From Desulfonatronovibrionaceae bacterium (GTDB taxonomy: Bacteria; Desulfobacterota; Desulfovibrionia; Desulfovibrionales; Desulfonatronovibrionaceae): a stretch of DNA of 64,000 nucleotides. Within the stretch, counting starts at the first letter, position 1; every line of letters begins with the position of its first letter. The translations under genes and the position numbers were made by a program. This document shows positions 9,410 through 50,009 of the stretch, one piece after another. The notes below the pieces were generated by a model that was given only the letters and a program-made list of their open reading frames with translations, made no database searches and was not told where the DNA came from. The stretch is from the NCBI GenBank assembly GCA_046539845.1, contig JBKHGE010000005.1, positions 12,937-76,936 of the forward strand, in the 5' to 3' direction.

Positions 9410-9548
9410 CACTGTCCCGGACCGACTATATATTTTTGGATAATCCGCTTTGGACCCGGTCGGCTCAAAAGATCTGAGGCCGGTAAACAAGCCCCGCCTC
9501 TGCGGACAAAATCTTTTAGCGGGGAACAAATCACAATAGGAGGTGGCC

Positions 9549-12784: not shown

Positions 12785-12811
12785 GAACTACTCGTTCTTC
12801 AGGGTTAAAAG

Positions 12812-13651: not shown

Positions 13652-13658
13652 GTCCGGA

Positions 13659-15275: not shown

Positions 15276-15285
15276 AATACAGGAA

Positions 15286-16068: not shown

Positions 16069-16099
16069 AATCAACACTCCGATCGGTTGAGCAGTCGGC

Positions 16100-16411: not shown

Positions 16412-16435
16412 TCCATTATCAGCAGAGGTTCAAGA

Positions 16436-34687: not shown

Positions 34688-35464
34688 ATGTCAAAAAAAG
34701 CCACACCAGAATTCACCGGTACGGACCGCTTTTACCGGGGCATGTGCAGACCGGAAAAAGGAGAAGTCCATTTCCAGGTAGTCTTAGAGGAAACCGATTT
34801 GTGGGTCACCGCCCTTAAGGACCTGAGTGCAGAGATCCTGGAATATATCCACACCCTGAGAGCGGAACTCAAAAATCACTGCCGGCGGCATCCGGATTTC
34901 TTGTCCGCGCTTCATCCCCTTGATCCCGGACCTGCAGACCCGGAAATAGCCGCCAGGATGAAAGAGGCCTCTTCCAGGCTCAATATCGGCCCCATGGCTG
35001 CAGTAGCCGGATGCATCGCCATGATGGTCGCAGAAAGGTTCGCAGACAAAAGCCCGGACCTGGTGGTGGAAAACGGAGGGGACATCTATATGTACTCCAC
35101 CCGGGAGAGAAAAGTCGGGCTCCTGGCCGATCCGGAAACAGGGGTCCATTTGGCACTGCGGGTTCCGTTTAGCCAATTCCCGTGCTCCCTGTGCTCCTCG
35201 TCCTCGACCATCGGTCATTCCTTGAGCCTGGGCCAGGGAGATTTGGTCACAGTACTGGCCAAAGACGGCTGCTTGGCGGACGCGGCCGCCACCGCCCTAG
35301 CCAATAACCTGCAGGGGAAAAAGGGGCTTAGCAGGATGCTCACTCAGGCAAAGACCCTGAAAAAGAACGGAGTCATGGGGGTATTTGGACAAAAAGGGGA
35401 GGAGATAGGGGTATGGGGGGAAATGGAGCTGGTCAGCATCCCAGACGATCCACAGTCTCCTTGA
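34688..35464 (+). CDS. UPF0280 family protein (ApbE-like fold)
   Basis: FYRG...VVLEETDLWV...GPMAAVAGCIA...ENGGDIY...DAAATALAN pattern. Alternative TTG start at 34646. Confidence 0.65.
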   Translation: MSKKATPEFTGTDRFYRGMCRPEKGEVHFQVVLEETDLWVTALKDLSAEILEYIHTLRAELKNHCRRHPDFLSALHPLDPGPADPEIAARMKEASSRLNIGPMAAVAGCIAMMVAERFADKSPDLVVENGGDIYMYSTRERKVGLLADPETGVHLALRVPFSQFPCSLCSSSSTIGHSLSLGQGDLVTVLAKDGCLADAAATALANNLQGKKGLSRMLTQAKTLKKNGVMGVFGQKGEEIGVWGEMELVSIPDDPQSP

Positions 35465-36767
35465 CCTGTCTCCCCAGCGGTGTCTGGCGGTTTATCTCCC
35501 GTTCCAGATTGGATATGCCCTTGAGTACAGTGGAATGCCTGCGATTAAAGCTGCGGCCAATTTCCTTCAACGACAGTTCGGTATACATCCGGGCCAGATA
35601 AAAAGCCGTGTTCCTGGCCAAAACATGCTGCTTTTTCCTGCTCTTGGAGGCCAGTTGGGAGCTGGTCACTGAATAGACCGAACACACGAATTCGACTATC
35701 CTGGACATGTCCACTCGGGGGCCGTGGACATCGTAGTTCTTCAAAACCTCCCAGGCCAAATCCAGAGAAATGCTCTGCCTCAAAAGTCTGGCCTTGAGGA
35801 CAAGGTTCTGCAGGCAGCTCTCCAGCTGGCGGACATCGCTATGTATCTTGTCTGCCAAAAGTTCATTCACCTCCGCGGGCACAGAAAACTGCATGGCCTT
35901 GGACTTATTTTCCAGGATTCGAAGCCGGGTCTCGTAATCCGGCTTGTCAATCACGGCCAAAAACCCCTGACTCAGCCTGGACATAAGCTTGCCGTCCACA
36001 TCTTTTAGCTCCTTGGGCAAAAAGGTGCTGGACAGGGCGATCTTCTTACCCTGATTCTTCAAGGAATCAATGGTGGCCAGGAATTCGTCCTGGATTTTCT
36101 CCTTGCCCTGGAAGAAGTGGATGTCCTCGAGCAAAAGCATGTCAATGCCGTCCCGGAACTGCTTCTTGAACTCATCAATCCGCCTGTTCTTCAAAGCGAA
36201 AATCATCTGGTTGGCGAATTCCTCTGCAGACAGATAGGCCAGTCTTATCTTGCGCCTCGCGTTGTTTTTACCCAAAAGACTGCCTATAGAATGGATCAGA
36301 TGAGTCTTGCCCAGGCCGGGCGAAGAACACAAAAAGAGCTGGTCCGCGGACAAATCCTGGCTGCACACAGATTTAGAGGCTGCGTAAGCCAACTCGTTAC
36401 TGGGTCCGACCACAAACCTTTCGAAATCGAATTTGAAACGCTTGTCCAGTCCTATATCCGGGGATAGGGGCAGACTCAACTGATGCTCCTTTCTCTGGGT
36501 CCTGACCGTTGGAGCGGCCGGCTTTGGACCGGCAGAATCGACCCTGACCTGAATCTCAGGGACAAAATCTAGGATACTTTTGGCCGCGTCAGCTATTTCC
36601 CGGGCATGCCTGTCTCTAACCCAGGAGGCAACAAACTCGTTCGGGGCCTTCAAATACAAGGTCCGGCCCTTGAGCTCCCCGGTCAAAGGCTGGATCCAGA
36701 CCTTGAACACCCCTTTTTGCAGGCAATTTTCCAGGACTTTTTGTATTCTGGGCCAAGTTCCATTCAT
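35433..36767 (-). CDS. dnaA: chromosomal replication initiator protein DnaA
   Basis: Domain I (W..I...L......F..WIQPL), AAA+ Walker A SSPGLGKTHL, Walker B LLLEDIHF. Domain IV reads KKQHVLARNTAFYLARMYTELSLKEIGRSFNRRHSTVLKGISNLE. Confidence 0.93.
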   Translation of the reverse strand: MNGTWPRIQKVLENCLQKGVFKVWIQPLTGELKGRTLYLKAPNEFVASWVRDRHAREIADAAKSILDFVPEIQVRVDSAGPKPAAPTVRTQRKEHQLSLPLSPDIGLDKRFKFDFERFVVGPSNELAYAASKSVCSQDLSADQLFLCSSPGLGKTHLIHSIGSLLGKNNARRKIRLAYLSAEEFANQMIFALKNRRIDEFKKQFRDGIDMLLLEDIHFFQGKEKIQDEFLATIDSLKNQGKKIALSSTFLPKELKDVDGKLMSRLSQGFLAVIDKPDYETRLRILENKSKAMQFSVPAEVNELLADKIHSDVRQLESCLQNLVLKARLLRQSISLDLAWEVLKNYDVHGPRVDMSRIVEFVCSVYSVTSSQLASKSRKKQHVLARNTAFYLARMYTELSLKEIGRSFNRRHSTVLKGISNLEREINRQTPLGRQVKETVDRLGC

Positions 36768-37330: not shown

Positions 37331-40072
37331 TCAGCCCTGGGCGGCCTTGCTCATGGACAGGCGGTACAACTCATGCGGATCCAGGATCAAGACCACATGA
37401 CCGTTACCCATTATAGTTGCCCCGGCAATGCCCTGTAAATCGCCCAGATACTCACCCAAAGATTTTATAACGATCTCCTGGCGCTCCAGGAGATCGTCCA
37501 CCACCACACCCAGTCTGCGGCCGGCCACATTCAATATAACCAGAGGCAAAACGTCTCTTTCCTTTTCCTCTGCAGCTAGACCCAAGACCTCGGTAAGCTC
37601 GACAATACCCAGGACTTCGCCCCGCAGAGAGATTGCCTTGCGTTTATTGACTTCGCTCAGCTCGGCCGCGTCTATCTTTGTAGTCTGAGAAACTGCATCC
37701 AGAGGGATGGCAAAGGTCTCATTGGCTGTTTTAACCATAAGCGCATCAATAATAGCCAGGGTCAGGGGGAGGCTGACCGTGAATCTGGATCCCCGGCCCA
37801 ACACTGACTCCACATTTATGCTGCCCTTGAGGCTCTTGATATTGTTGCGGACCACATCCATACCCACTCCCCGTCCGGAGATATCTGTCACTTCCTGGGC
37901 CGTGGAGAATCCCGGAGCAAAAATAAGATCTACTGCCTCCTGATCGTCCAGATTGCTGGCTTCCTCCTGAGAAACAATCCCTTTTTCCACACCCTTAAAA
38001 CGCATCTTTTCCGGATCGATACCGCCCCCGTCGTCCTCGACCTCGATAACCACGGAATTGCCCTTATGTGAGGCCCGGAGCCGGACCCGGCCGGTTTCCG
38101 GCTTCCCGGCCTTTTTCCTGGTTTCCGGGTCTTCCAACCCGTGATCCACTGCGTTACGCAGAAGATGGACCAGGGGATCACCAATCAATTCGACCACACT
38201 CTTATCCAGTTCGGTATCCTCACCCTCCATTACCAATTCCACATTTTTCCCACTCTTGCGACTTAGGTCCCGAATAAGACGGGGAAACTTGGAAAACACC
38301 ATCTGAACCGGGACCATGCGCACATTCATAATGGTCGCCTGCAGATCGTCGGAGATCCTGGCCATGGAATAAGTTGTCTCCGTGAGCTGCTGGGCCACTA
38401 CTTCCGGTTCCTCGCCCTCCTCCAGATTTCTGGTAAGCATGGAGAAGCGATTGCGGTTTATGATCAGCTCCCCGATCAGATTCATGAGGTGGTCGAGCTT
38501 GGCGTGATCCACACGTATGGTGGAGGCTATATTGGACTTGGCCTTGTCATCGTCCTTGCCGGATTTATCCCCTTTATCAGGCTCGGCCGGTTTCTTCTCC
38601 GCGGCAGAACTTCTTTCCTTCTGGGGTTTTTTGCCTCTCTCCTCATGTGCTTCAGGCCCAGGAGTTTTTTGGTCTTTAGCCGGGGCCGGCTTTTCCGCCT
38701 CCGAACCGAGGTATTCTTCCTCCTCCCCTGTTCCAGCCGCTTGGTCTGTCTGGGCAGATCCCTCTCCGGACATAGCTCCAATGGCCTTGTCCACCATCTC
38801 ATGCAATATCTCCGCCTCCTGGCGGAGCAGATCCAGAACCAGGGAAAAGTCCATATCCGCATTCCGGCTCTGGTCTACGAGATTGGCGGTCCGCTGCGCA
38901 TAGGTCTTGATCTCCTCAAGGCCCATATACGCCGCGGAGTTTTGCAAGGTGACCATAGCCCGGTACAACCCGTCGATTATTTCCGACTGCCCGGCATCCC
39001 CGGCCAATTGCTTCAAGGCGTAGTCAATATTGTCAAACTGTTGGGCAACAGTCTGCTTGAAAATCTTCAGATCCTCGGGATCCACCTCTGGTACAGAAGA
39101 GACATCCTCCTCCTGCTCTAATGTCCCGGAGTCTGGCTTGGGCTCTTGCTCTGCGGCTGGCTGTATAGAGGTTTCAGGTCCTCCTCCCTCCAGCTTCTTC
39201 AACCTGGCCAACAAACCAGAGACATCGCCCGGGCTAACCAGGCAGCTCTCCATATCCACCCATTCGAGCATTTCCTCCAGGGAATCTGCGGTCTGGAGCA
39301 GGGCATCGACAAGCTCCTGTCCGGCCTCAAGCTCCTGGTTGCGGACCTTGTTCAAAATGGTCTCCGCGGCATGGGTCAGGCTGTTCAGCTCCATAAAACC
39401 AATTATGCCGCTGTTGCCCTTGAGATTGTGGAAATTGCGAAAGATATCGTTTATCAGATCCTGGCGGCCGGACGGATCCTTTTCCAGCTCCAGAAGCCGA
39501 CTGTTCAGGTCAGCAATAACCTCCCGGGCTTCTTCCATGAAATCAACCAGGTGATCCGGGCTGACCAAGGTGAGCTTATACGGAGCGTTCTCGGGTGCAG
39601 CGGCTTCGGTGCCGGTGTCAGCGGATTGTATCCCGCTCTCTCCGGGATCTTCCGAAGATCCGGCCGATTCCGGAGCCTCACCAGCCAGAATGGATTTCAT
39701 CTTGTCCACCAAAGGACGGACATCCAAATCACCCTCTCTGCCCTCGGACTCCAGGGTGTCAATCATGCTCCGCAAGGCGTCAGTGGCCTCCAGGATAATA
39801 TCCATTATCTCAGAGGTGACCTTTAAATTGCCCTTGCGTAGCTCATCCAGGACATTCTCCCCTTTATGGGCCAGCGCATTTATCTCGTTTAGACCCAGAA
39901 ATCCGGAAGCTCCCTTCAGGGAATGCATAGGACGAAAGATATGGTCCAAAAGCTCCAATCTGTCCGGTTGTTTCTCCAGCTCCAGAAGATTGGGCTCAAT
40001 GGTCTCCAGATGCTCTCTGGCCTCGATCACAAAATCGGCAAATACTTCCGGATCAAAGGAGTCCTGACTCAT
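37331..40072 (-). CDS. cheA: chemotaxis histidine kinase CheA with three Hpt-like domains (two canonical, one degenerate)
   Basis: Hpt1 FRPMHSLKGASGFLG (His50), Hpt2 FRNFHNLKGNSGIIG (His215), Hpt-like 3 YRAMVTLQNSAAYMG (Val374 replaces His). Followed by the dimerisation domain, HATPase_c (GGGID, SGRGVGMDVV) and a C-terminal CheW domain. Confidence 0.93.
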   Translation of the reverse strand: MSQDSFDPEVFADFVIEAREHLETIEPNLLELEKQPDRLELLDHIFRPMHSLKGASGFLGLNEINALAHKGENVLDELRKGNLKVTSEIMDIILEATDALRSMIDTLESEGREGDLDVRPLVDKMKSILAGEAPESAGSSEDPGESGIQSADTGTEAAAPENAPYKLTLVSPDHLVDFMEEAREVIADLNSRLLELEKDPSGRQDLINDIFRNFHNLKGNSGIIGFMELNSLTHAAETILNKVRNQELEAGQELVDALLQTADSLEEMLEWVDMESCLVSPGDVSGLLARLKKLEGGGPETSIQPAAEQEPKPDSGTLEQEEDVSSVPEVDPEDLKIFKQTVAQQFDNIDYALKQLAGDAGQSEIIDGLYRAMVTLQNSAAYMGLEEIKTYAQRTANLVDQSRNADMDFSLVLDLLRQEAEILHEMVDKAIGAMSGEGSAQTDQAAGTGEEEEYLGSEAEKPAPAKDQKTPGPEAHEERGKKPQKERSSAAEKKPAEPDKGDKSGKDDDKAKSNIASTIRVDHAKLDHLMNLIGELIINRNRFSMLTRNLEEGEEPEVVAQQLTETTYSMARISDDLQATIMNVRMVPVQMVFSKFPRLIRDLSRKSGKNVELVMEGEDTELDKSVVELIGDPLVHLLRNAVDHGLEDPETRKKAGKPETGRVRLRASHKGNSVVIEVEDDGGGIDPEKMRFKGVEKGIVSQEEASNLDDQEAVDLIFAPGFSTAQEVTDISGRGVGMDVVRNNIKSLKGSINVESVLGRGSRFTVSLPLTLAIIDALMVKTANETFAIPLDAVSQTTKIDAAELSEVNKRKAISLRGEVLGIVELTEVLGLAAEEKERDVLPLVILNVAGRRLGVVVDDLLERQEIVIKSLGEYLGDLQGIAGATIMGNGHVVLILDPHELYRLSMSKAAQG

Positions 40073-40201
40073 TTTCGGCCCCTAACATACTGTTTTTAAC
40101 CCGTTTGGCAGATCATTTATCACACAGCCCGGATTGAGACCCGGTCGGCAGAAAGAAACAGATAAGCACAAAAATCCGGGCCCTGGACAATTGCAAGAGA
40201 T

Positions 40202-40597
40202 TCAATCCCCGCCTCCGGACTCAGGATCGACTCCCAAAAGCATCTTTACATTTCTGACCATCTTCTCCGGCTGGGCCGGTTTAACCAGATACAAATTGGC
40301 CCCCAGTGTAAGTCCCTGCTGGATATCCTGCTCCTGTCCCTCGGTGGAAAGGACAATGATCGGCAGGTCCCTGTACACCTCTTGGTCCCGGACGGTTTTT
40401 ATGTACGTAAATCCATCCATGCGGGGCATATTCACGTCGCAGATGATAAGATCCACATCCGGGGTGGAATACAATTTTTCCAGACCGTCCAGTCCATCCT
40501 CTGCCGTGGTGACACGGAAGCCCTCCTTTTTCATGATAAAGGCCACTAAATTGCGTACTGTCTTTGAGTCATCAATGATTAATACATGCGGGGCCAT
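40202..40597 (-). CDS. cheY: chemotaxis response regulator CheY
   Basis: 131-aa stand-alone receiver: VLIIDDS, DLIICDVNMPRMDG, the T (LSTEG) and K (VKP). Confidence 0.85.
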   Translation of the reverse strand: MAPHVLIIDDSKTVRNLVAFIMKKEGFRVTTAEDGLDGLEKLYSTPDVDLIICDVNMPRMDGFTYIKTVRDQEVYRDLPIIVLSTEGQEQDIQQGLTLGANLYLVKPAQPEKMVRNVKMLLGVDPESGGGD

Positions 40598-40662
40598 TAA
40601 TCCTCCTTAAACAGACCACAGTTGACTGCGGAACAAAATCCCGGACACTTTCCTCCACCACC

Positions 40663-41394
40663 CTAGCTGTGAACAAGAATGTCCGCCAGTCTGTCCACGG
40701 ACAGAACCGCAATCAACCCCTTCTCTCCTTTGATCACCCCTTCCACCAGGTCGCAATTCGCGCCCAGACTGGATTCCACTCCCCATTCAATGTCCTGCTG
40801 CTGGATATGGTTCATGGTGGCAATAGAATCTATTATCAACCCGATCTGCAGTCCCTTATGTCTGCAGACAATAATGAATCTGGACTTCCCCGCTTCCCGG
40901 CCGCTGTCCACCAAACCGGCCAGCCTGACCATGGGCGTTACCCTGCCCCTGAGATTGACTATGCCCTCTATGTACTCCGGGGACCCGGGCAATTTGGTCG
41001 GCTCCTGGTATCTAAGGACCTCCTTGACCCGGGATACGGGCAGGGCAAACTCCTGTTTCCCCAGCCGGAAGCTTATCATCTGCACCTTCTCGCTCCCGCG
41101 ATAGGCCGTGTCTTGCCCTGCTTCCGAACTTGCGGTCTCTTCATGGGCGTCGGTATCATCCATCCGCTCGTCCACAGACGCCGCTCTGGCCCCCTCAATC
41201 TCCTCGGGGCGGGAGAGATCCGAGGACTTAGCGCCCCGCTCGTCAATCACGGATATATCCTTGAGGACGCTCTGGCTATCCCCGCCCAGATACCGATCCA
41301 AAAAACTCTTTTCCTCCGGACTCAAGCCCGGACTGTCTTCGCCTCCGGTCGCTGCAAAAACATGGTCCTCGAAATACTGCTCCGGTGTCTTCAT
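40663..41394 (-). CDS. cheW: CheW-domain coupling protein with about 100-aa acidic N-terminal extension (ParP-like)
   Basis: C-terminal FRLGKQEFALPVSRVKEVL...IEGIVNLRGRVTPMVRL is a CheW fold. The N-terminal 100 aa is low-complexity and acidic. 4-nt overlap with the upstream ParA-like gene. Confidence 0.75.
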   Translation of the reverse strand: MKTPEQYFEDHVFAATGGEDSPGLSPEEKSFLDRYLGGDSQSVLKDISVIDERGAKSSDLSRPEEIEGARAASVDERMDDTDAHEETASSEAGQDTAYRGSEKVQMISFRLGKQEFALPVSRVKEVLRYQEPTKLPGSPEYIEGIVNLRGRVTPMVRLAGLVDSGREAGKSRFIIVCRHKGLQIGLIIDSIATMNHIQQQDIEWGVESSLGANCDLVEGVIKGEKGLIAVLSVDRLADILVHS

Positions 41395-42173
41395 AACGCG
41401 AGCACCTCCCTGGCCAGCAGGTCGTATTCCCTGGCGCCCCGGCTGTCCGGTGCATATCTGCTTATAACCATTCCCATGGCGCTGGCCTCTCTGAATTTGG
41501 TGTCCACGTGTATAACAGTCTCAAATAGCCTGGCGCCCAATTTCTTGCGCAGCAGATTTAGCACCCGGCGGCAGGCCCCGGCCCGACGGTCATGCATTGT
41601 AGCCAGGGCCCGAAATTCTATAGGAGAGCTCAAGGCCCGGTTCAGAGTGCGCATGGTCTCAAAAATCAGCTTCAGACCGTGCAAGGCCAAAAAATCAGTT
41701 TGAATAGGGATAATCACCATATCTGAGGCAACCAGGGCATTTATCAGCACGACCCCCATATGCGGAGGACAGTCTATTATCACCGCATCAAATCCACCGG
41801 CCTGTTTTTGGATCCAATTGCGGAGTATAAGCCCCTTTCCGGAAATATCCCGCAGATCGCTCTCCACATCTGATAACCGGACATGACTGGGGACAAAATA
41901 AAAACTCCTTTTTTTATCCGGGACGATCACCACCTCCTCCGAGACGATATCACCTTTTTGGGCAAAAATATCCCGAACCGTGGCCGGCATATTCTCCGGA
42001 TAAAAGGCCATATGGATCGATGCGCATGCGTGCGGATCAAGGTCCATGACCAATACCTTTTTCCCCTGCGCGGCAAAAGACTCGCCCAGACTGAGCGCAG
42101 TGGTTGTCTTGCCCACCCCGCCCTTTTGGTTGGCTATGGCCAGGACCTTACATTTCAATACAAATCCCCGCAA
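41391..42173 (-). CDS. ParA/MinD-family ATPase embedded in the che operon (ParC/PpfA-like)
   Basis: Deviant Walker A NQKGGVGKTTT, LVMDLDP, IIDCPP. Confidence 0.8.
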   Translation of the reverse strand: MRGFVLKCKVLAIANQKGGVGKTTTALSLGESFAAQGKKVLVMDLDPHACASIHMAFYPENMPATVRDIFAQKGDIVSEEVVIVPDKKRSFYFVPSHVRLSDVESDLRDISGKGLILRNWIQKQAGGFDAVIIDCPPHMGVVLINALVASDMVIIPIQTDFLALHGLKLIFETMRTLNRALSSPIEFRALATMHDRRAGACRRVLNLLRKKLGARLFETVIHVDTKFREASAMGMVISRYAPDSRGAREYDLLAREVLAL

Positions 42174-42179
42174 GCCGGC

Positions 42180-42572
42180 TTACATATTGTCGGCAATCAG
42201 CCGATACAAGGCCTTCCAATCGTCCCCATCCACGTTCACGAACCTTATGCCCGCCTCAAAGCGCACTCCGGAGACCACTTCCCGGACCCAGGCCACCTCG
42301 GCCACTGCCTGCAGACTTTGAGACAAATCACTCTCAAATACCTTAAAGTATCCGGGATGGAATTTGTTCAATCTGGGTATGCCCACCTCCAATTGCAGCA
42401 ACTGGCCGGTTTCCAGCCTGACCGGGGACTGGATGCGCATCCCCCCGCAGCTTATGTCCACGCATTCCAAACTAAGTTCCTTTTGCCTGGAAAGCGGAAA
42501 TGCCAGCTTCTTCAGACTGACCCGATAGGTTTTGGGCAAACGGACATATTCACGACGCTCCATTGCCATCAC
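42180..42572 (-). CDS. single-domain PilZ c-di-GMP receptor (MapZ-like position next to cheR)
   Basis: RREYVR (RxxxR) and DISCGGM (DxSxxG) about 30 aa apart. 130 aa. Its start codon directly follows the cheR stop (0-nt gap). Confidence 0.75.
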   Translation of the reverse strand: MMAMERREYVRLPKTYRVSLKKLAFPLSRQKELSLECVDISCGGMRIQSPVRLETGQLLQLEVGIPRLNKFHPGYFKVFESDLSQSLQAVAEVAWVREVVSGVRFEAGIRFVNVDGDDWKALYRLIADNM

Positions 42573-43451
42573 CTATTCGCTCTTTTTGTACACAATAGCG
42601 CCCGGGTGATGCGCCGGGGTAAAGGCCCTGGAAATATTGTGCAGGGACTCGGAGTGGCCGATAAACAAGTAGCCTCCGGGCAACAGATTGTCATAAAAGG
42701 AATTGATTACATTCTTTTTCATCTCATCGTCAAAATAAATAATGACATTGCGGCAGAATATGACATGGGAGCGTTGCACCCCTTTGACCTGAAAACGGTC
42801 ACTCAAGTTCAACTGACCAAACTCAACCAGCCCCTTCACCTTAGGATCTAATTTGTACTTGCCTGGCCCCTCCTCCTGGAAATAACGCTTCTTGATCTCC
42901 TCGGGCGTTGTTCGCAGGGCATACTTGGTGTAAATCCCCCGTTCTGCGCTTTTTATTACCGCCGGGGAGAGGTCGTTTGCAGTGATCTTTACATCCCACT
43001 GGGTTATTTCCCAGCCCAGGACCTCAAAAAGTATAATGGCCAGGGTATAGGGCTCTTCTCCGGTCGAACATCCGGCGGACCAGATATGCAATTTCCTGTC
43101 TTTTTGCCGGCGCTGTCTTTCCAGGATCTCCGGGAGGATCTTATCCTGAAATATGGCCAGCTGCGGAGGATTGCGAAAAAAGCTCGTCTCATTGGTGGTT
43201 ATGACCTCGAACAGCTTGGACAACTCCTGTCTGCGGCCTGGGTCATATTTCAAATAATAATAATATTCGCCAAAATTCTTAAGATTAAGCTCTTTTAAGC
43301 GGTTGGCCAGCCTATTTTCCAAAAGATATTTGCGGTTTTCCCGGATATGGATACCGCTTTGAGCATATATAAAATCACGCAACAAAAGGAATTCTTCGTC
43401 CGTGATCTTCAGATCCTGCCTTAAGGTAATCGTCTTGGAAAAAAGGGTCAT
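42573..43451 (-). CDS. cheR: chemotaxis protein methyltransferase CheR
   Basis: From ATG 43451: N-terminal helical domain (ITDEEFLLLRDFIYAQSGI), NETSFFR, SAM fold IWSAGCSTGEEPY, and FCRNVIIYF. The track ORF extends to 43577 but overlaps the upstream gene. Confidence 0.9.
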   Translation of the reverse strand: MTLFSKTITLRQDLKITDEEFLLLRDFIYAQSGIHIRENRKYLLENRLANRLKELNLKNFGEYYYYLKYDPGRRQELSKLFEVITTNETSFFRNPPQLAIFQDKILPEILERQRRQKDRKLHIWSAGCSTGEEPYTLAIILFEVLGWEITQWDVKITANDLSPAVIKSAERGIYTKYALRTTPEEIKKRYFQEEGPGKYKLDPKVKGLVEFGQLNLSDRFQVKGVQRSHVIFCRNVIIYFDDEMKKNVINSFYDNLLPGGYLFIGHSESLHNISRAFTPAHHPGAIVYKKSE

Positions 43452-43455
43452 CGAT

Positions 43456-45462
43456 TCAGTCCGCCATATCGCCTTGAATCTTGTCCAAAGCCCTTTCCGC
43501 CATCTCCAGGATCTCCTCGTCCCCCCCTTCGAGTTGACCCAAAAGTGCCCGGAAAGCCTCTTCTCCGCCCAAATCACCCAATGTCTCTATGGCCTTTAGC
43601 CGGACCATGGTCGATTCGTCGTCCAAGAGTTGGATAATGCGGGGCACAGCTTCCCTTTCCTTTCTCTCACCCAGGGCTTCTATCGCACGCAAACGGACCC
43701 ATTCGTTTTCGTCCTCTATGGCCCGAATCAGATAGGGAACAGATTCCGGACGCTTGCACTCGCCCAATAGCTCCACCAGAGTCAGGCGCACATCCCGACT
43801 CTCGTCCTCGAACAAAGGGACCAGTATCTGCAGGGACTGGTCGTCTTCATAACATTGGGAGGCTATTCCCTCCATCGCCAGCTGCCGCACATTAGATACC
43901 CGGTCATGCAAAGCCTTTTGCAGTATCTCCATATTCTCCCGCGCCCCCAGCTTTCCGGCAGCGTACACGGCCATAAGCCGGGACTTGTCGTCTTCCGACT
44001 CCGCCATCTCCTGAAAAAGGCGCATGACCTTATCTCCGCCAATATTCAGGACCGCATCCAAAGCGGTTTCCTTAACATCATCCCAGGGATGGTCCAAAAA
44101 ACCCATTATTATCCGTGCGGTTTCTTCGTCACGGCAATGCACACCCAGATAGCGCAGGGCGTTTTTCAAAACATCGCCGTCATCATGGCGGCGGAGCACT
44201 TGCAAAAAAAAGTCTCCTGCTCCGGCATACGTTCTGTTCAAAACCGAGCTTATCTCCCTCTGCAGATCCCGGCCTTTGTCCCAAAAAGCCTGCATCAAAT
44301 AGCCAGCCGCCTTCTCAGTCCCGAGTTCATCCGCCACAGCCACACCCACGGTGCTCAGGGATTCATCATTGCTAAAGATAGCCTCTTTAAGGGCCTCGGT
44401 CATCCCCATACGGGACAGGGCCCGGATCATCATGGCCCGGCGTTCCTCATAAATATCCGGATCCAAAGAAGCGGCCAGTTTAAGGATCATCCTGCTACCC
44501 CTTTCACTGCCCACACTGCTTATGCCCAGTACAGCCGCGTCCTGGATCTCCTCGTCGTCATCCTCCAATGCCACCAGGAGATATTCCTTGAATTTTTCTT
44601 TTTCTGATTCTGATAAATAACTCAGGGCCTTACCGCCCAGTATATTGACCACAGCCTTGAGGATCTTGTTGCGCATGGCCGTGTCTAGATCGCTGTCCAG
44701 CTTGTTCAAAAGCATGGGCACGGCCTTTATATTACCCATCTCCCCCAAAGCGTCCACGATCATGGAATTTACCAGTTCGGTGGAAGAATCCATGGCCGAG
44801 ACCAGGGCGTTTATCGAGGATTCGTCCCTAATCTTCAACAGTGCCTCTATAACCGCAAACTGCACCCATTCCTCGTCACCCAAGGCCTGATTCAAGTATT
44901 CCACCGCTTCCTTACGCCTAAGATCCCCCAAGCTCACTGCCGCCTGATAGCGGACATTCACGTCCGGATCATTCAACAGGGAGTCGGACAGTGGTCCAAT
45001 GGCCATGTATGAATCACTAAAACCCAAAATGTCCGCGGCAAATATACGAATATCCCCGTCCGGATCATTCAAGAGACCGATAATGGCCCCCATGTCCTGA
45101 TATCCGATATGCCGAAGTATATCCATGGCCAGATTGCGCACAGCAGCCGACTGCTCGCCAAGCAGCGGAATCAAAGCATTTACGCTGTTTTTGCCCCCGA
45201 TCTTACGCAAAGCCATGTCCGCTGCTTCCTGGACCCCGATATTGTCGCTCTGCAAGAGGTTCACAAGCAAAGGAACCGTGCGCTCGTCACCAGTGTCCCG
45301 GGCCGCGAACGCAGCTTCCCGCTGTTCATCCGGATCACTGCTCTGCAGCCGTTTGATTATCTCGTTCGAGGCAAATTTCTGCATCTGTCCTAGCTCCGCG
45401 TCTCGCCCCGCATCGAGTCTGATCTCTGCCGCATGGGGACTAATTATACAAAAAAGAGGCAA
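43456..45462 (-). CDS. HEAT/PBS-lyase repeat protein (668 aa)
   Basis: More than 12 tandem copies of the D..VR..A..ALG pattern (for example DEEWVQFAVIEALLKI, DENEWVRLRAIEALGE, DDESTMVRLKAIETLGD). Alternative start at ATG 45384. Confidence 0.75.
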   Translation of the reverse strand: MPLFCIISPHAAEIRLDAGRDAELGQMQKFASNEIIKRLQSSDPDEQREAAFAARDTGDERTVPLLVNLLQSDNIGVQEAADMALRKIGGKNSVNALIPLLGEQSAAVRNLAMDILRHIGYQDMGAIIGLLNDPDGDIRIFAADILGFSDSYMAIGPLSDSLLNDPDVNVRYQAAVSLGDLRRKEAVEYLNQALGDEEWVQFAVIEALLKIRDESSINALVSAMDSSTELVNSMIVDALGEMGNIKAVPMLLNKLDSDLDTAMRNKILKAVVNILGGKALSYLSESEKEKFKEYLLVALEDDDEEIQDAAVLGISSVGSERGSRMILKLAASLDPDIYEERRAMMIRALSRMGMTEALKEAIFSNDESLSTVGVAVADELGTEKAAGYLMQAFWDKGRDLQREISSVLNRTYAGAGDFFLQVLRRHDDGDVLKNALRYLGVHCRDEETARIIMGFLDHPWDDVKETALDAVLNIGGDKVMRLFQEMAESEDDKSRLMAVYAAGKLGARENMEILQKALHDRVSNVRQLAMEGIASQCYEDDQSLQILVPLFEDESRDVRLTLVELLGECKRPESVPYLIRAIEDENEWVRLRAIEALGERKEREAVPRIIQLLDDESTMVRLKAIETLGDLGGEEAFRALLGQLEGGDEEILEMAERALDKIQGDMAD

Positions 45463-46504
45463 TCTCTCCGGCCAGTTCCTCCAAGGGAACCACTTTATCC
45501 GCCAGACCTTCGTCCACTATGGCCATGGGCATACCATAGACCACGCAGGACTCCTCGCTCTGGGCCAAGGCCTTTCCTCCGCAGGCCTTGAGATCGCGTA
45601 TCCCCAAAAGCCCGTCGCTGCCCATCCCGGTCAAAATAACCCCCAGGCCCCTGCTGCCGACCGCCTTGGCCACTGAAGACATAAGCACGTTAACCGAAGG
45701 TCGGTACAAAGCGTCCTCTGGCTTCTCACCCACAGCCACATCAATCCTGCTCACTTTCTGCTCAATGGTCAAATGCATTCCCCCCGGAGAGATATAAACA
45801 CAACCGGGCCGGAACACATCCCCGACCTCGGCCTCCTTAACTTTGAGCCGACAGCTCTCCCCCAGGCGTTTGGCAAACGGCCCGGTAAAGGCCTTGGGCA
45901 TGTGCTGGGCGATGAGTATTCCGGCGGGGAAATCCGGGGGCAGCTCGGACAATATACGCTGGACCACCGGCGGACCTCCTGTAGAAACCCCGAAGGCCAC
46001 CACGTCCCTGATCTGCTTGCCTCTTTTGCTGGACTCAATCACCCGGCGTCGGACCGGCTCCGCGCTCTTATCGCGCGCCCTGGCCGGCCGGGCCGCCCTG
46101 GGGCGCACCCTGCGCCTGGCTATAGCCTTGACCTTTTTTAAAAGGTCCTCTTCTATCTTGACTATATCCAGGCTAACTTTGGAAAGCTGCTTGGGGATGA
46201 AGTCCACCGCACCGTTTTCCATGGCCTTTAGCGTGGCCTCGGCGCCCTCAGTGGTCAGGGAGCTAACCATCAGCACGGGGCGGGGCATCTCCATCATTAT
46301 ATGCTTGAGCGCGGTGAGCCCATCCATGCGGGGCATTTCAATATCCAGGGTCACCACATGCGGATCATGGGCCCGAATCTTCTCCAGCCCCTCCTCCCCG
46401 TCCCGGGCATACGCCACCACCTGAATCTCAGGATCCTTATCCAGCATGGTCCCGATGGCTTTGCGCATGAATGCGGAATCATCAATAACAACAACCCGAA
46501 TCAT
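45440..46504 (-). CDS. cheB: protein-glutamate methylesterase/glutaminase CheB (REC + CheB_methylest)
   Basis: MIRVVVIDDSAFMR..., VTLDIEMPRMDG, and the catalytic domain (GVSTGGP, HM..., GMGSDG). Confidence 0.92.
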   Translation of the reverse strand: MIRVVVIDDSAFMRKAIGTMLDKDPEIQVVAYARDGEEGLEKIRAHDPHVVTLDIEMPRMDGLTALKHIMMEMPRPVLMVSSLTTEGAEATLKAMENGAVDFIPKQLSKVSLDIVKIEEDLLKKVKAIARRRVRPRAARPARARDKSAEPVRRRVIESSKRGKQIRDVVAFGVSTGGPPVVQRILSELPPDFPAGILIAQHMPKAFTGPFAKRLGESCRLKVKEAEVGDVFRPGCVYISPGGMHLTIEQKVSRIDVAVGEKPEDALYRPSVNVLMSSVAKAVGSRGLGVILTGMGSDGLLGIRDLKACGGKALAQSEESCVVYGMPMAIVDEGLADKVVPLEELAGEIASFLYN

Positions 46505-46532
46505 TCTCTGCTCCTGAAATAGACGGCAAAAA

Positions 46533-48092
46533 TCAACCCCGGCCGAAAAGCTCTCTTATGCCGGAAAAATTGCTCTCGTTAATAGTGGTCAAATCATTGC
46601 TCTCAATAAAACCCAGCCACTTATAAAGCAAATCCTCTTCCCATTGGGTCCCGGCGCCCTCCTCCATGATCAGCTTGACCTTGTCCATGGGCAGGGCCTG
46701 CCTGTAGGCCCTGTCCGAAGTCATGGCCTCAAAGGCGTCCACCACGCTTATGACCCGGGCCAGAAAAGGGATCTGTTCACCTGTAAATCCTTCCGGATAT
46801 CCCCTACCGTCGATACGTTCATGGTGATGGTAGACAATGGGCAAGATGTCCTTAAGACTCCAAACCTGAGAAAGGATATCCCGGCCAATGGCCGGATGCT
46901 TCTTCATGACTTCGAATTCCTCGTCCGTCAGCCGGCCCGGTTTGTTCAGGATATGATCCGGGACCCCGATCTTCCCAATATCGTGCAATACTCCGGCCAC
47001 ATAGATTTTTTCCAGCTCCTTGCTGGTCAACCCGACCTCCATCCCCAGCTTCAGTCCATAGGTGGCCACCCGCTCCGAGTGCCCCTTAGTATACACGTCC
47101 TTTACTTCCACGGCAGTGGCATAGGAACGAATAATATCCAAGTTCAGATCCTGCATCCGGACATACATATTCGCGTTCTGCATGGAAGTGGCCACATGGG
47201 AGGCAAAAACCGACAACAGCTGGACGTCGGAATAGACAAAAAGGCTGTTCTTTTTCTCTCGAATCAGCCCGACCGCACCTATGGACCGACCTTGGGCGAC
47301 CAAAGGGACTATAAGCAGGGAATACGGAAAATCCTCTTTCTTTACCAAATCATTTTCCGGAAAGTTGTACTGATCGACCAGTTTGGACTGCTGGCTACGC
47401 ATGGACTCTACACACAGCCTGCGAACCAAAGAAAATATTTCCTGCTTGGTCCTGAACACCACCCCCCGGATAATGGAGCTGGCCGCTTCCTTATTGTCGT
47501 CGTTCAGAAACAAACAAGAACTGTCCGGCTTAAAATTCTTCTGGATATGGCTTATGAATTCGTAGGAGATAGACTTGGGGTCCAGCTGGGCGTTGAGCGC
47601 ATTGCTCAGATTCAGCATACGCACGATATTACCCAGCCTTTTGTGCTCCATCCTGGACTTTCTGCTGCTTAAGACCTTGTTCACTTTAACCAAAAGATGG
47701 CTTATATTGAACGGCTTAGGCAGGTAGTCAGAGGCGCCCAGCTTCATGCATTCCACTGCGGTCTCTATGGTCCCAAATCCGGTCATGACCAGAAAATCCA
47801 CATCCAATTCCTGTTCCTTGACCCGCTTTAAGAGATCTATCCCGTTCATCTGGGGCATACGCAAATCAGAGACAATCAGATCGATCTCCGGATTATGGGC
47901 CAGGTATTCCAGGGCAGCCTGTCCGTCTTCGGCCAGGGACACATGGTATCCCTCGTCTTCCAGGGCGTCCTGGCAGATCTCCCGCAGGCTCTCCTCGTCG
48001 TCCACCACCAATATCGAGGCGGGCGTTTCTTGCCCGGACGTTCCCTTTTCCCCTATTTCGCCTTCAATCTTGTCTCTATCCGAAAATTGCAT
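46533..48092 (-). CDS. response regulator with central GAF-like region and HD-GYP c-di-GMP phosphodiesterase domain
   Basis: REC (ILVVDDEESL...DLIVSDLRMPQMNG...PKP). HD-GYP region: HSERVATY...VLHDIGKIGVPDHILNKPGRLTDEEF..MKKHP...HHERIDGRGYP. Confidence 0.88.
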   Translation of the reverse strand: MQFSDRDKIEGEIGEKGTSGQETPASILVVDDEESLREICQDALEDEGYHVSLAEDGQAALEYLAHNPEIDLIVSDLRMPQMNGIDLLKRVKEQELDVDFLVMTGFGTIETAVECMKLGASDYLPKPFNISHLLVKVNKVLSSRKSRMEHKRLGNIVRMLNLSNALNAQLDPKSISYEFISHIQKNFKPDSSCLFLNDDNKEAASSIIRGVVFRTKQEIFSLVRRLCVESMRSQQSKLVDQYNFPENDLVKKEDFPYSLLIVPLVAQGRSIGAVGLIREKKNSLFVYSDVQLLSVFASHVATSMQNANMYVRMQDLNLDIIRSYATAVEVKDVYTKGHSERVATYGLKLGMEVGLTSKELEKIYVAGVLHDIGKIGVPDHILNKPGRLTDEEFEVMKKHPAIGRDILSQVWSLKDILPIVYHHHERIDGRGYPEGFTGEQIPFLARVISVVDAFEAMTSDRAYRQALPMDKVKLIMEEGAGTQWEEDLLYKWLGFIESNDLTTINESNFSGIRELFGRG

Positions 48093-48288
48093 CCGACTCT
48101 TCCTTAGGGAATTCCCTGACTGATTTTAAGCCCTTTATGGGCCTACGGATTTCTTTCAAACTCGCCCTTTCGCTATACCGAGAAAAATCAGTAGCCTTGT
48201 AAACTCCCGGCAACAAGGGGCATTTCTAAGCAGAATTTTGGGTATTTCCAAACAAAAGGGCAAAATCATAGTCTGCCCGAAAAACCCC

Positions 48289-48315
48289 TTGCCCTTGGAG
48301 GCGAGATAGTATAAA
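48289..48315 (+). promoter_or_regulatory. candidate sigma-70-type promoter for tRNA-Pro (TTGCCC-N15-TATAAA)
   Basis: Hexamers read by eye, with the -10 ending 18 nt before the tRNA 5' end. The spacer is short (15 nt), so this is tentative. Confidence 0.3.
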
Positions 48316-48333
48316 TATTTGCCGTCAATCCGA

Positions 48334-48411
48334 CGGGATGTGGCTCAGTCTGGCTAGAGCGCAGCGTTCGGGACGCTGAAATCGCAGGTTCGAATCCTGC
48401 CATCCCGACCA
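48334..48411 (+). tRNA. tRNA-Pro (anticodon CGG), CCA encoded
   Basis: Manual cloverleaf: acceptor CGGGATG/CATCCCG, D arm GCTC/GAGC, anticodon arm CAGCG-TTCGGGA-CGCTG, T arm GCAGG-TTCGAAT-CCTGC, discriminator A, CCA. Confidence 0.9.
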
Positions 48412-48420
48412 GGAAATCAA

Positions 48421-48448
48421 AAGGTTGCGAAGTCTCGCAACCTTTTTT
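48421..48448 (+). terminator. rho-independent terminator after tRNA-Pro
   Basis: Perfect 10-bp stem AAGGTTGCGA-AGTC-TCGCAACCTT followed by TTTTGT. Confidence 0.75.
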
Positions 48449-48671: not shown

Positions 48672-50009
48672 CTAATATACGGGTCGTCTGCCGATGCAGA
48701 AATAGGCAAAACCCTTTACCGCCATCTCCTCCGGCGGATAAAGATTGCGGCCGTCGAAAACAATCGGGGCCTGAAGTCTCTTTTTGATCCAATCAAAATC
48801 CGGGTTGCGGAACTGGTTCCATTCCGTAAGCACAGCCAAGGCGTCCGCCCCATCCAAGGCCTCGTATTGCTCCTTTACGATGCTTACTCCTTCACATCCG
48901 GCAAAGCGTTCCCTGGCCTTGGACCCGGCAACAGGATCAAAGGCCCGGATATGCATGCCCCGGGAAATCAACTCCTGGATTATCTTAACCGATGGGGATT
49001 CCCGCAGGTCATCGGTATTCGCCTTGAAGGCCAGGCCCCAAACAGCCAAGATCTTGCCCCGCACACCTCCCTGGTTCTGAAAATAATCCACGATCTTGTT
49101 TGCCAGGACTTTTTTCTGGGCCTCATTCACCCGGTCCACTGACTCCAAAAGCTCCGCAGGATGACCGTATTCCCTGGCCGTTCCGATCAAGGCCTTGACA
49201 TCTTTGGGGAAACAAGACCCTCCGTAGCCGATACCCGGATAAATGAAATGATACCCAATTCTGTGGTCCGCACCAACACCCTGGCGGACATCGCGGACAT
49301 CCGCGCCCACGCTTTCGCAAAGATTAGCAATCTCGTTGATAAAGGAGATCTTGGTGGCCAGCATACAATTGGCCGCATATTTGGTCATTTCTGCGCTGCG
49401 CACGGACATGATCATGAGCTTGTCCCTGCTGCGGGCGAACGGGGCATAAAGGGTACGGAGAAGCTCCGCGGTCCGGACATTGTCCGTGCCCACCACCACC
49501 CGGTCCGGCTTCATGAAGTCGGTCACTGCATCGCCCTCTTTTAAAAACTCCGGGTTGGAAACCACGTCGAATTCCTGGCTAACCCCCCTCTTGTCCAGCT
49601 CGGCCGCCACTATCTCCCGGACCTGGTCCGCAGTGCCCACAGGCACAGTCGATTTGTCCACCAATATCTTGTACTCCCCCATGGTCCGGCCCACTTCCCG
49701 GGCCACCTGGTGGACATAGGACAGATCAGCGCTCCCGTCCTCCAGGGAAGGAGTGCCCACGCAGATAAAGACAAACAGTCCGTTTTTCAGCCCCTTGCTC
49801 AAGTCCGTGGTAAAATTGAGTCTGCCCTGGGCGCTGTTGCGGACCACCAACTCCTTCAACCCAGGTTCATAGATATGCACTTCGCCGCTTTTGAGCTTGT
49901 TTACCACTTCCGGATTGACATCAACGCAGCAGACATTATTACCCATTTCCGCAAAACAGGCGGCAGTGACCAATCCTACATAACCGGAGCCAACTATACA
50001 GACATCCAT
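48672..50009 (-). CDS. ugd: UDP-glucose 6-dehydrogenase
   Basis: MDVCIVGSGYVGLVTAACFAEMG NAD-binding N-terminus, catalytic Cys region GGSCFPKD, 445 aa. Confidence 0.92.
   Translation of the reverse strand: MDVCIVGSGYVGLVTAACFAEMGNNVCCVDVNPEVVNKLKSGEVHIYEPGLKELVVRNSAQGRLNFTTDLSKGLKNGLFVFICVGTPSLEDGSADLSYVHQVAREVGRTMGEYKILVDKSTVPVGTADQVREIVAAELDKRGVSQEFDVVSNPEFLKEGDAVTDFMKPDRVVVGTDNVRTAELLRTLYAPFARSRDKLMIMSVRSAEMTKYAANCMLATKISFINEIANLCESVGADVRDVRQGVGADHRIGYHFIYPGIGYGGSCFPKDVKALIGTAREYGHPAELLESVDRVNEAQKKVLANKIVDYFQNQGGVRGKILAVWGLAFKANTDDLRESPSVKIIQELISRGMHIRAFDPVAGSKARERFAGCEGVSIVKEQYEALDGADALAVLTEWNQFRNPDFDWIKKRLQAPIVFDGRNLYPPEEMAVKGFAYFCIGRRPVY

Follow-up and report, generated by a model that had tools for sequence, protein, structure and literature searches.

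A nine-gene chemosensory operon, carried on the minus strand of a Desulfonatronovibrionaceae MAG, is probably a fuller, ancestral form of the CheA3-type flagellar chemotaxis operon of the Desulfovibrionales. The explanation that best accounts for the data as a whole, to which we assign a probability of roughly 0.45, is that of a CheA3-type chemotaxis operon fitted with positioning, PilZ and HD-GYP modules. An operon that is widely conserved in the sulfate-reducing Desulfovibrionales here also contains a predicted c-di-GMP sensor and a predicted c-di-GMP-degrading enzyme. The output of the operon is, with high probability, motility.

Gene content and layout

The stretch of DNA analysed, hereafter the window, is 64 kb long. 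The initial annotation had described nine co-directional open reading frames at 37331-48092; all were found at these coordinates, and the order that it had proposed was recovered by Pfam. From the first gene to the last, preceded by the 5' region, the features are as follows.

48093-48333, minus strand: 5' non-coding region, bounded by a divergent tRNA-Pro
46533-48092, minus strand: REC-GAF-HD-GYP response regulator, 519 aa, first gene (Pfam, motifs)
45440-46504, minus strand: CheB methylesterase, REC + CheB_methylest (Pfam, NCBIfam)
43456-45384 (long start: 45462), minus strand: HEAT-repeat protein, 642 aa (Pfam)
42573-43451, minus strand: CheR methyltransferase (Pfam CheR_N + CheR)
42180-42572, minus strand: single-domain PilZ protein, 127-130 aa (Pfam PilZ)
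41391-42173, minus strand: ParA/MinD-family ATPase, ParC/PpfA-like (Pfam AAA_31)
40663-41394, minus strand: CheW-like protein of ParP-like architecture (Pfam CheW, residues 105-237)
40202-40597, minus strand: CheY, single-domain response regulator (Pfam Response_reg)
37331-40072, minus strand: CheA histidine kinase, terminal gene (Pfam Hpt x3, H-kinase_dim, HATPase_c, CheW)

Recomputing the spacings from the coordinates gave exactly the values first reported (28, -23 or 55, 4, 0, 6, -4, 65 and 129 nt). Alignment to orthologues favoured the shorter start of the HEAT gene (55-nt gap to cheB) and the M43 start of cheR (4-nt gap to the HEAT gene), and the PilZ protein has 127 aa in the NCBI annotation, making the cheR-PilZ gap 9 nt instead of 0. 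Between ugd and the 5' end of the operon stand the divergent tRNA-Pro (48334-48411, plus strand) and two hairpin-plus-T-run sites, which insulate the operon from that gene. The promoter must lie within 48093-48333, a region that has a hairpin plus T-run on its minus strand (48278-48258) and in which no match to the sigma-70, sigma-28 or sigma-54 consensus stood out. The operon had been said to lack MCP, CheZ/CheX and CheD, and the domain scan agrees: MCP, CheZ, CheX, CheC and CheD domains were found neither in the operon nor in the ~50 other window ORFs scanned. The receptors would be encoded elsewhere.

The Che core and the ParA/CheW-like pair

Comparison of 131 related loci revealed an invariant core, cheB-HEAT-cheR-cheY-cheA. 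More than 110 independent loci share the operon order, which places the arrangement far beyond chance, and the full nine-gene order is found in several Desulfovibrionales families. The conservation beyond the source strain that the initial annotation had called for is therefore present, as is the complete CheA/W/Y/B/R core that it had described. The tightest junctions, by median, are HEAT-cheR (4 nt), cheR-PilZ (3 nt) and ParA-CheW-like (-4 nt).

CheB was identified with Pfam (2.7e-62) and with the NCBIfam CheB model above its cutoff (4.5e-128). The HEAT protein contains ten HEAT_2 stretches (Pfam, 5e-83). Its relatives number 973, and many cultured Desulfovibrionales encode an orthologue of ~640 aa. 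Its gene invariably lies between cheB and cheR, and the protein is presumed to be a scaffold. CheY (Pfam Response_reg, 5e-29) shares 67-93% identity with its orthologues. The CheA of the window carries three Hpt-like domains, only two of which have the HxLKG histidine, followed by dimerisation, ATPase and P5 (CheW-like) domains. Three Hpt domains occur in all 43 CheAs of the operon family, and 42 of these have two with the histidine. We propose that CheA, through its two phosphorylatable Hpt domains, would phosphorylate CheY, which acts at the motor, and CheB, and that CheR, CheB and the dedicated HEAT-repeat protein would make up the adaptation branch.

The ParA-like ATPase (Pfam AAA_31, 1.7e-46) has a deviant Walker A motif, KGGVGKT, read from the sequence. 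Its gene and the CheW-like gene are both present in 77 loci and both absent from 19, and neither was ever found singly; the two overlap by 4 nt in most loci. The CheW-like protein begins with MKTPEQYF, at least 90% conserved in 33 sequences, and continues with an unconserved acidic linker and a CheW domain. Gain and loss of the two genes as one unit, together with the ParP-like architecture, point to an array-positioning pair of the ParC/ParP type, an assignment by analogy that we consider likely. The ATPase and the adaptor would then position the receptor array as ParC/ParP does. Partner proteins generally dock through an N-terminal peptide, and that of the adaptor probably docks on the ATPase.

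The accessory c-di-GMP genes

The c-di-GMP genes were counted in an unbiased, HEAT-sampled set with 50 scorable operons, of which 44 have neither the PilZ nor the HD-GYP gene. Both are accessory genes, and their presentation as a defining feature of the operon was overstated. An HD-GYP gene lies beside cheB, on its upstream side, solely in PilZ-containing operons (19 of 19, 16 + 3, versus 0 of 44 PilZ-less operons; Fisher p = 0.001, uncorrected for phylogeny). This restriction fits the functional pairing that had been suggested for the two genes. Since operons with both HD-GYP and PilZ lie at the base of the tree, shared ancestry alone can also explain the association.

The HD-GYP regulator matches Response_reg (7.5e-31), GAF (4.6e-07; 30.9 bits versus a cutoff of 22.4) and HD_5/HD-GYP (1.5e-36) in Pfam. 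Across 21 orthologues, HDIGKIG, HHHExxDGxGYP and the DD/D/T/K residues of the receiver show at least 95% conservation. With catalytic and phospho-acceptor residues intact, the protein is predicted to be a phosphorylatable c-di-GMP phosphodiesterase, as first annotated, and its motifs make an active enzyme quite likely. As an orphan regulator at the operon head, it would degrade c-di-GMP once phosphorylated, and the likeliest donor would be CheA. We regard the assignment of the operon CheA as phosphodonor as tentative, with the odds leaning against it. In such a circuit, kinase activity would lower c-di-GMP and so release a brake exerted by the PilZ protein.

A serious contender, itself short of even odds, is that the HD-GYP gene is a mere long-standing neighbour: an unlinked histidine kinase would phosphorylate the regulator, the regulator would set the global c-di-GMP pool, PilZ would read that pool, and there would be no loop through CheA. 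In Desulfohalobium retbaense an HD-GYP orthologue stands at the same genomic position while cheB to cheA are gone, and in Desulfonauticus the gene is retained beside a decayed che operon. Retention in these two genomes suggests a role independent of the operon CheA and probably a phosphodonor of its own. Eleven PilZ-containing operons also lack the adjacency, as does every PilZ-less operon of the Desulfovibrionaceae type, and the distance to cheB (median 59 nt, up to 212) is looser than at other junctions. The receiver, 33% identical to CheY, is no closer to it than receivers in general and has its best NCBIfam receiver matches among the NtrX, FixJ and NtrC types. Three-Hpt CheA, moreover, occurs with or without a linked HD-GYP gene, and this, with the persistence of HD-GYP after che loss, weakens the case for phosphotransfer from CheA to the regulator. 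A mere neighbour, however, would not be expected to show same-strand adjacency in at least four families with no cognate kinase gene beside it, never to head a PilZ-less operon, or to remain paired with cheB in Desulfonatronum even where the operon is split. The window gap of 28 nt, without a terminator-like site, likewise argues for integration into the operon. HD-GYP divergence tracks that of HEAT (r = 0.85) and of CheA (r = 0.87).

The PilZ protein (Pfam, 1.2e-11) retains the RxxxR and DxSxxG motifs, as do all 35 orthologues. Its prediction as a c-di-GMP receptor thus stands, and binding is, judging from these motifs, very likely. The protein falls into a separate subfamily that is small (11 representatives at E <= 1e-30), and its sequence profile matched no solved PilZ structure. 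Its AlphaFold2 model (pLDDT 81.5) has the PilZ domains of Alg44 and MotI as best PDB matches, MotI/DgrA, a motility inhibitor, being second and third, and MapZ is not among the top 50. No fusion protein naming a PilZ partner was found. Where present, the PilZ gene invariably follows cheR directly. Translationally coupled to cheR, the PilZ protein would bind c-di-GMP and most likely modulate the adaptation enzymes by a MapZ-like inhibition of CheR, perhaps through the HEAT protein. An action on CheR or adaptation is a possibility that we put not far below an even chance.

We consider it improbable that PilZ instead governs array placement through the ParA/CheW-like pair, or exerts a YcgR/MotI-like effect on the motor or CheY. 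The gene does sit between cheR and the ParA-like gene, MotI/DgrA ranks high among the structural matches, and other systems offer examples of PilZ-CheX and YcgR-type motor control. PilZ is, however, more tightly coupled to cheR than to ParA (median 27 nt), and its single domain comes without the extra N-terminal domain of YcgR/MotI. Array positioning, which the initial annotation had offered as one target, is disfavoured because PilZ persists, still directly after cheR, in three operons without the ParA and CheW-like genes. A Wsp-like system with c-di-GMP level, set by the HD-GYP regulator, as its main output instead of motility is most improbable: chemosensory systems with c-di-GMP enzyme output such as Wsp are known and the 64-kb window holds no flagellar genes, but the stand-alone CheY is universally conserved, most family operons have no c-di-GMP enzyme, and the D. 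vulgaris relative is needed for swimming chemotaxis.

Comparison with known systems

The initial annotation knew of no characterised Che pathway with exactly this gene set; the cheA3 operon of D. vulgaris is a characterised relative. In D. vulgaris Hildenborough cheA3 (DVU2072) is needed for soft-agar and capillary chemotaxis, and the operon is reported to be conserved across Desulfovibrio (Ray et al. 2014, PMC3944678). As in the window, cheA comes last, after cheY, cheW and a parA homologue; the latter, DVU2075, is three genes from DVU2072 and so matches the ParA-CheW-CheY-CheA order. Orthologues of the HEAT protein are present in many genera of the Desulfovibrionaceae. The window operon is very probably of the cheA3 type, a judgement based on gene order and the literature and not on the D. 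vulgaris sequence. The PilZ and REC-GAF-HD-GYP genes that it also carries are both absent from most sampled Desulfovibrionaceae operons.

The ParA-like and CheW-like proteins match a known type. As with Vibrio ParC/ParP and Rhodobacter PpfA, a ParA-family ATPase gene lies in a che operon, and here too the CheW-like gene comes directly after it. ParP shares the succession of N-terminal interaction region, linker and CheW domain, but its linker is proline-rich and that of the window protein acidic, and the window operon, unlike the ParC/ParP setting, has no separate canonical cheW. The likeness of the N-terminal peptide to ParP is at the level of architecture.

The HD-GYP regulator follows the domain logic of the REC-(PAS/GAF)-HD-GYP families RpfG, RpfX and RpfY (Galperin and Chou; DVU0722, DVU2933). 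Members of these families have not been reported within a che operon, and the middle domain of the window protein fits GAF models better than DUF3369. In D. vulgaris, full-length REC-GAF/PAS-HD-GYP regulators were inactive unless the receiver was phosphorylated, while their isolated HD-GYP domains were active. Pairing of a CheA-like kinase with a receiver-containing c-di-GMP enzyme is familiar from Wsp-type systems, in which the partner is a REC-GGDEF protein. The only output of Wsp is c-di-GMP synthesis, and a motility CheY is absent from it, whereas the window enzyme is predicted to degrade c-di-GMP as an accessory to a motility-type pathway.

A dispersed counterpart of the loop predicted for the operon, CheA/Pch plus MapZ/CheR1, is known in P. 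aeruginosa. When bound to c-di-GMP, the PilZ adaptor MapZ inhibits CheR1, a methyltransferase. Like the window protein, MapZ is a CheR-associated single-domain PilZ of ~125-130 aa with intact c-di-GMP motifs; the window protein is of a separate subfamily with no special structural similarity to MapZ, and its association with CheR is by translational coupling. The mapZ gene is not known to lie in a che operon. The phosphodiesterase Pch (DipA) is controlled by CheA, whose phosphorylation lowers c-di-GMP (Kulasekara et al. 2013, PMC3861689). Pch is thus tied functionally to a chemotaxis kinase, as is proposed for the window enzyme, but it is of the EAL type, lacks a receiver domain and is encoded elsewhere. 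The receiver and in-operon gene of the HD-GYP protein make direct phosphotransfer possible, unlike the situation with Pch. With a P. aeruginosa precedent for each of its halves, a loop from CheA through the phosphodiesterase to PilZ, mirroring the dispersed one, is plausible.

Gene content of the operon and its flanks

The ORF listing of the window places nine co-directional genes on the minus strand, from 48092 down to 37331. Pfam domain assignment, with which the NCBIfam calls were concordant, agreed with all nine gene identities proposed in the initial annotation, and the intergenic spacings reported there were exact.

Features of the operon and of its upstream flank (operon genes in order, domains by Pfam)
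Operon gene 1, minus strand: REC, GAF and HD_5 (HD-GYP) domains
Operon gene 2, minus strand: CheB (Pfam CheB 2.7e-62; NCBIfam CheB subfamily model above cutoff)
Operon gene 3, minus strand: HEAT protein with ten HEAT_2 stretches
Operon gene 4, minus strand: CheR (Pfam CheR 2.8e-55)
Operon gene 5, minus strand: PilZ
Operon gene 6, minus strand: ParA-type ATPase (AAA_31, CbiA, MipZ)
Operon gene 7, minus strand: CheW-like protein, CheW domain at residues 105-237
Operon gene 8, minus strand: CheY, single REC domain
Operon gene 9, 37331-40072, minus strand: CheA with three Hpt domains, dimerisation domain, ATPase and CheW-like P5
48278-48258, minus strand: second hairpin, with T-run, upstream of the operon
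48334-48411, divergent from the operon: tRNA-Pro, upstream
48419-48446, bidirectional: hairpin upstream of the operon
48672-50009: ugd, parted from the operon by tRNA-Pro and the two hairpins

The Pfam matches thus comprise what is expected of a Che operon, namely the full CheA domain set, a CheW-domain protein, a CheY receiver and both CheR and CheB; CheA matched the NCBIfam CheA model at 2.4e-167, under the equivalog cutoff. Orthologue alignments favoured a start giving a HEAT protein of 642 aa, which leaves a 55-nt gap, and a CheR start giving 292 aa, which leaves a 4-nt gap. MCP, CheZ, CheX, CheC and CheD domains were found neither in the operon nor in the remaining ORFs of the window that were scanned, so that the absence of MCP, CheZ/CheX and CheD reported earlier also stands.

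On the downstream side there are an 81-aa ORF without a family and, just downstream of cheA, a gene for a DnaA-family protein (35433-36767, minus strand). Because the cumulative GC skew has no turning point within the window, this gene is probably a paralogue rather than an origin-linked gene. A DnaA-family neighbour also occurs at two further loci (L001, L002) and in Desulfonauticus (L048).

Rfam searching of the full window returned two tRNAs only, with no riboswitch and no c-di-GMP RNA element. Consensus scans for sigma-70, sigma-28 and sigma-54 promoters gave nothing above chance in the window, nor did the same scans upstream of cheB or of the HD-GYP gene at 77 related loci. One sigma-28-like match (TAAAAACAGTATGTTAGGGGCCGAAAA; 40072-40098, minus strand; 2 mismatches) touches the cheA start codon, too near for a normal promoter; the number of such matches was marginally above chance (24 found, 15 expected).

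Conservation and loss among related loci

A scan with the PilZ alignment, in which each species was represented by one genome, yielded 35 Desulfovibrionales loci, every one of which had the order cheB-HEAT-cheR-PilZ-(ParA-CheW-like)-cheY-cheA; the synteny that the initial annotation had proposed to check therefore extends well beyond this strain. The HD-GYP gene lay directly 5' of cheB at 16 of them and was absent at 8 with sufficient upstream sequence, 9 loci being unscorable; absence here means missing from the position 5' of cheB, not from the genome. Since this sample had been selected via PilZ, a second one was drawn with the HEAT protein (80 metagenome loci and two cultured genomes). It defined cheB-HEAT-cheR-cheY-cheA as the core of the operon family. 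Among the 50 loci scorable for both c-di-GMP genes, 44 had neither, 3 had PilZ only, 3 had PilZ and HD-GYP, and none had HD-GYP only (Fisher p = 0.001, a value that ignores the relatedness of the loci). In operons lacking PilZ, the cheR-to-cheY distance was 1490-1809 nt with the ParA and CheW-like genes and 54-160 nt without them, and there is therefore no space for an overlooked gene. A substitute c-di-GMP or che gene at the HD-GYP position was considered and rejected: in PilZ operons without HD-GYP, the genes 5' of cheB encode a pyrophosphatase, a lyxose isomerase or ORFs without a Pfam match, that is, unrelated or unassigned products.

We placed these patterns on a neighbour-joining tree of HEAT and CheR, which is crude and midpoint rooted. 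Operons with both HD-GYP and PilZ all fell in its basal part, which includes MAGs labelled Desulfohalobiaceae and Desulfonatronovibrio and two labelled Desulfovibrionaceae. Also basal were two Desulfonatronum-type loci (L020, L029) in which PilZ is present and the HD-GYP/cheB pair sits at a separate locus. PilZ-only operons formed several patches interleaved with PilZ-less clades. The simplest reading of these sequence data is that HD-GYP and PilZ were ancestral, with loss of the HD-GYP linkage preceding several separate losses of PilZ. HD-GYP divergence correlated with that of HEAT (r = 0.85) and CheA (r = 0.87), in line with co-inheritance.

Individual genomes show how the operon came apart. 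Desulfohalobium retbaense (L046, CP001734) has relA-rubredoxin-HD-GYP followed directly by the usual post-cheA genes; cheB to cheA have therefore been excised cleanly, with the HD-GYP gene retained in its usual position. In Desulfonauticus submarinus (L048), the order ugd-HD-GYP-cheR-cheW fragment-dnaA, with a CheW fragment of 89 aa, amounts to the window's own flanks (ugd, dnaA) enclosing a decayed operon. The Desulfonatronum operon is split, HD-GYP and cheB lying together at one locus (L047) and HEAT-cheR-PilZ-ParA-CheW-cheY-cheA, with no cheB upstream, at the other (L020, L029). A JGI contig carries the complete nine-gene operon downstream of relA. As the HD-GYP gene has been kept without che genes and is missing from 11 PilZ operons, each c-di-GMP gene can work without the other in the operon.

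One further block of the window is found next to cheA elsewhere:
14130-17380: DprA (minus strand), TPR/YfiO lipoprotein (minus strand) and an ORF of 314 aa without a family (plus strand)

In at least 25 related loci the 314-aa ORF has a homologue convergent with and downstream of cheA, and in three annotated loci (L049-L051) the whole block is found there. Its distance of about 20 kb from cheA in the window indicates local rearrangement or insertion.

The accessory proteins and CheA

The HD_5 match of the first gene product covers profile positions 6-164 of 170. HDIGKIG, HHHExxDGxGYP and the DD/D/T/K residues of the receiver are conserved in 21 orthologues, among which the GAF-like middle is variable; by these motifs the protein is a predicted RpfG-like c-di-GMP phosphodiesterase. 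Regulators of the REC-(GAF/PAS)-HD-GYP type have been described as a class, and two examples from D. vulgaris were inactive as full-length unphosphorylated proteins and active as isolated HD-GYP domains, which supports control of such a regulator by phosphorylation. Being an orphan receiver protein that heads the operon, it has an obvious candidate donor in CheA, and in P. aeruginosa a phosphodiesterase can be driven by CheA phosphorylation (Kulasekara et al. 2013, PMC3861689). A soluble hybrid histidine kinase (HisKA-HATPase_c-REC, no sensor domain recognised) is encoded 9 kb from the operon (27038-28294, plus strand) and could conceivably serve as phosphodonor to orphan receivers instead. 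Some 24 kb away from the operon lies a further c-di-GMP-related pair, in which the gene for a REC and GGDEF-like protein (11846-13855, minus strand), with the signature GGDDF in place of GG(D/E)EF, adjoins that for an HDOD-domain protein.

The operon PilZ protein has RxxxR and DxSxxG in 35/35 orthologues, an apparent absence of RxxxR in three of them having proved an artefact of start-codon choice. Its AlphaFold2 model (pLDDT 81.5) matched the PilZ domains of Alg44, MotI, BcsA and MrkH; the 50 best PDB matches by fold did not include a structure of MapZ (PA4608), and a PilZ-family sequence profile run against the PDB found no solved PilZ, only spurious matches to designed TIM barrels. With a predicted PilZ fold, RxxxR and (D/N)xSxxG, the protein has the features of a c-di-GMP receptor. 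With 11 representatives at E <= 1e-30 and 109 at E <= 1e-10, the subfamily is small, and it is made up of stand-alone proteins; an exhaustive profile search for 'Rosetta stone' fusions to a partner returned almost only stand-alone proteins of ~130 aa. An invariant segment, NKxHP...KVFE, is specific to this subfamily and is a candidate partner surface. The PilZ gene is a median of 3 nt from cheR and 27 nt from ParA, and it survives in operons that have lost the ParA and CheW-like genes. Both the tight coupling to cheR and this survival point to the adaptation branch, not to array placement. Another protein with a PilZ domain (178 aa, Pfam 1.4e-07) is encoded in the window; it is not related to the operon PilZ, and its gene overlaps the start of one for an HATPase_c_2 (anti-sigma-kinase-like) protein within 9543-10812 (plus strand).

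The HEAT gene is universal in the operon family, at a median of 4 nt from cheR, and HEAT and CheA orthologues occur in Maridesulfovibrio, Fundidesulfovibrio and Desulfovibrio sp. An HEAT_PBS protein is known from an archaeal che region; our search for a characterised bacterial counterpart found none. Three Hpt-like domains are present in every one of the 43 family CheAs, and in 42 of these proteins two of the domains carry HxLKG, independent of accessory genes; the idea of an extra Hpt dedicated to HD-GYP was rejected on that ground. In the third domain of the window CheA (residues ~335-448), AMVTLQNS replaces HxLKG and there is no phospho-accepting histidine; this degeneracy is conserved across the family.

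ParA and CheW-like genes behaved as a unit, both being present in 77 loci, neither in 19, and one alone in none, with a 4-nt overlap at most loci. The translated ATPase carries the deviant Walker A motif KGGVGKT. The CheW-like protein begins with MKTPEQYF, at least 90% conserved, followed by an acidic linker that is not conserved and then the CheW domain. Docking via an N-terminal peptide is a general rule for partners of ParA/MinD ATPases. In ParP, as described, an ATPase-interaction region at the N terminus is joined by a linker to a CheW-like (AIF) domain at the C terminus. The window operon thus resembles ParC/ParP both in encoding, inside a che operon, a ParA/MinD ATPase whose Walker A is deviant and in having, directly downstream, a partner gene of ParP architecture. 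The two proteins probably form an array-positioning pair added to the core. Operons without the pair have no CheW gene at all; in these, canonical CheW is presumably encoded elsewhere.

A chemotaxis pathway with a proposed c-di-GMP input, and its precedents

These findings are best explained if the operon encodes a Che pathway for motility, of the type known from D. vulgaris cheA3. It would consist of the cheA3-type core and the array-positioning pair, to which older lineages would add a c-di-GMP input. We give a probability of about 0.45 to the reading that this input acts through PilZ on adaptation, together with a linked phosphodiesterase. That the nine-gene form is in addition a self-contained, operon-encoded feedback loop, much as the initial annotation had proposed, seems to us unlikely. 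In such a loop, one of the two live Hpt domains of CheA would directly phosphorylate the HD-GYP regulator, which would then deplete c-di-GMP near the receptor array; PilZ would free CheR, perhaps via a HEAT scaffold, and the activity of the pathway itself would tune receptor methylation and thereby the chemotactic set-point. Were this so, no earlier Che pathway would be known in which a c-di-GMP phosphodiesterase is phosphorylated directly and the outcome is sensed by a dedicated receptor from the same operon; the adaptation branch would also gain a new component in the HEAT protein.

The coupling of chemotaxis to c-di-GMP, the signal that switches cells between swimming and settling, is understood only in fragments, largely from Pseudomonas and Vibrio, in whose genomes the components are dispersed. 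In the present case a single chemotaxis operon holds both a dedicated receptor and a degrading enzyme whose receiver is phosphorylatable, and the existence of natural variants without one or both c-di-GMP genes makes the question testable in cultured Desulfonatronovibrio, Desulfonatronum and Desulfovibrio. Two components of the principal sulfate-reducer chemotaxis operon, the HEAT protein of 640 aa and the pair of ParA and CheW-like proteins, are strictly conserved yet uncharacterised. The chemotaxis of these bacteria is relevant to sulfur cycling, biofilms and corrosion.

The literature searched described no motility-type che operon with built-in genes for PilZ and a receiver-containing HD-GYP protein, nor the nested distribution of PilZ and HD-GYP, nor the universal HEAT gene of this family, and it named no chemosensory class (F1-F17) for the operon. 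A possible parallel with Geobacter che clusters containing HEAT and HD-GYP genes was dropped, as Tran et al. 2008 makes no mention of HEAT, HD-GYP, PilZ or Desulfovibrio. In P. aeruginosa, MapZ and CheR1 offer a precedent for a PilZ protein on the adaptation branch, and in the window operon the PilZ gene is coupled to cheR. In D. vulgaris, DVU2072 is cheA3, the terminal gene of its operon, and is required for chemotaxis, and DVU2075, three genes away, is a ParA homologue (Ray et al. 2014, PMC3944678). Judged by gene order and the literature, this parA-cheW-cheY-cheA arrangement with terminal cheA is that of the window, and the cheA3 phenotype lends indirect support to a flagellar role. The initial annotation had taken the pathway to be uncharacterised; it has this relative, and each of its elements has a known counterpart, in ParC/ParP, MapZ-CheR1, Pch-CheA, RpfG-type regulators and Wsp, so that the operon is no new kind of system.
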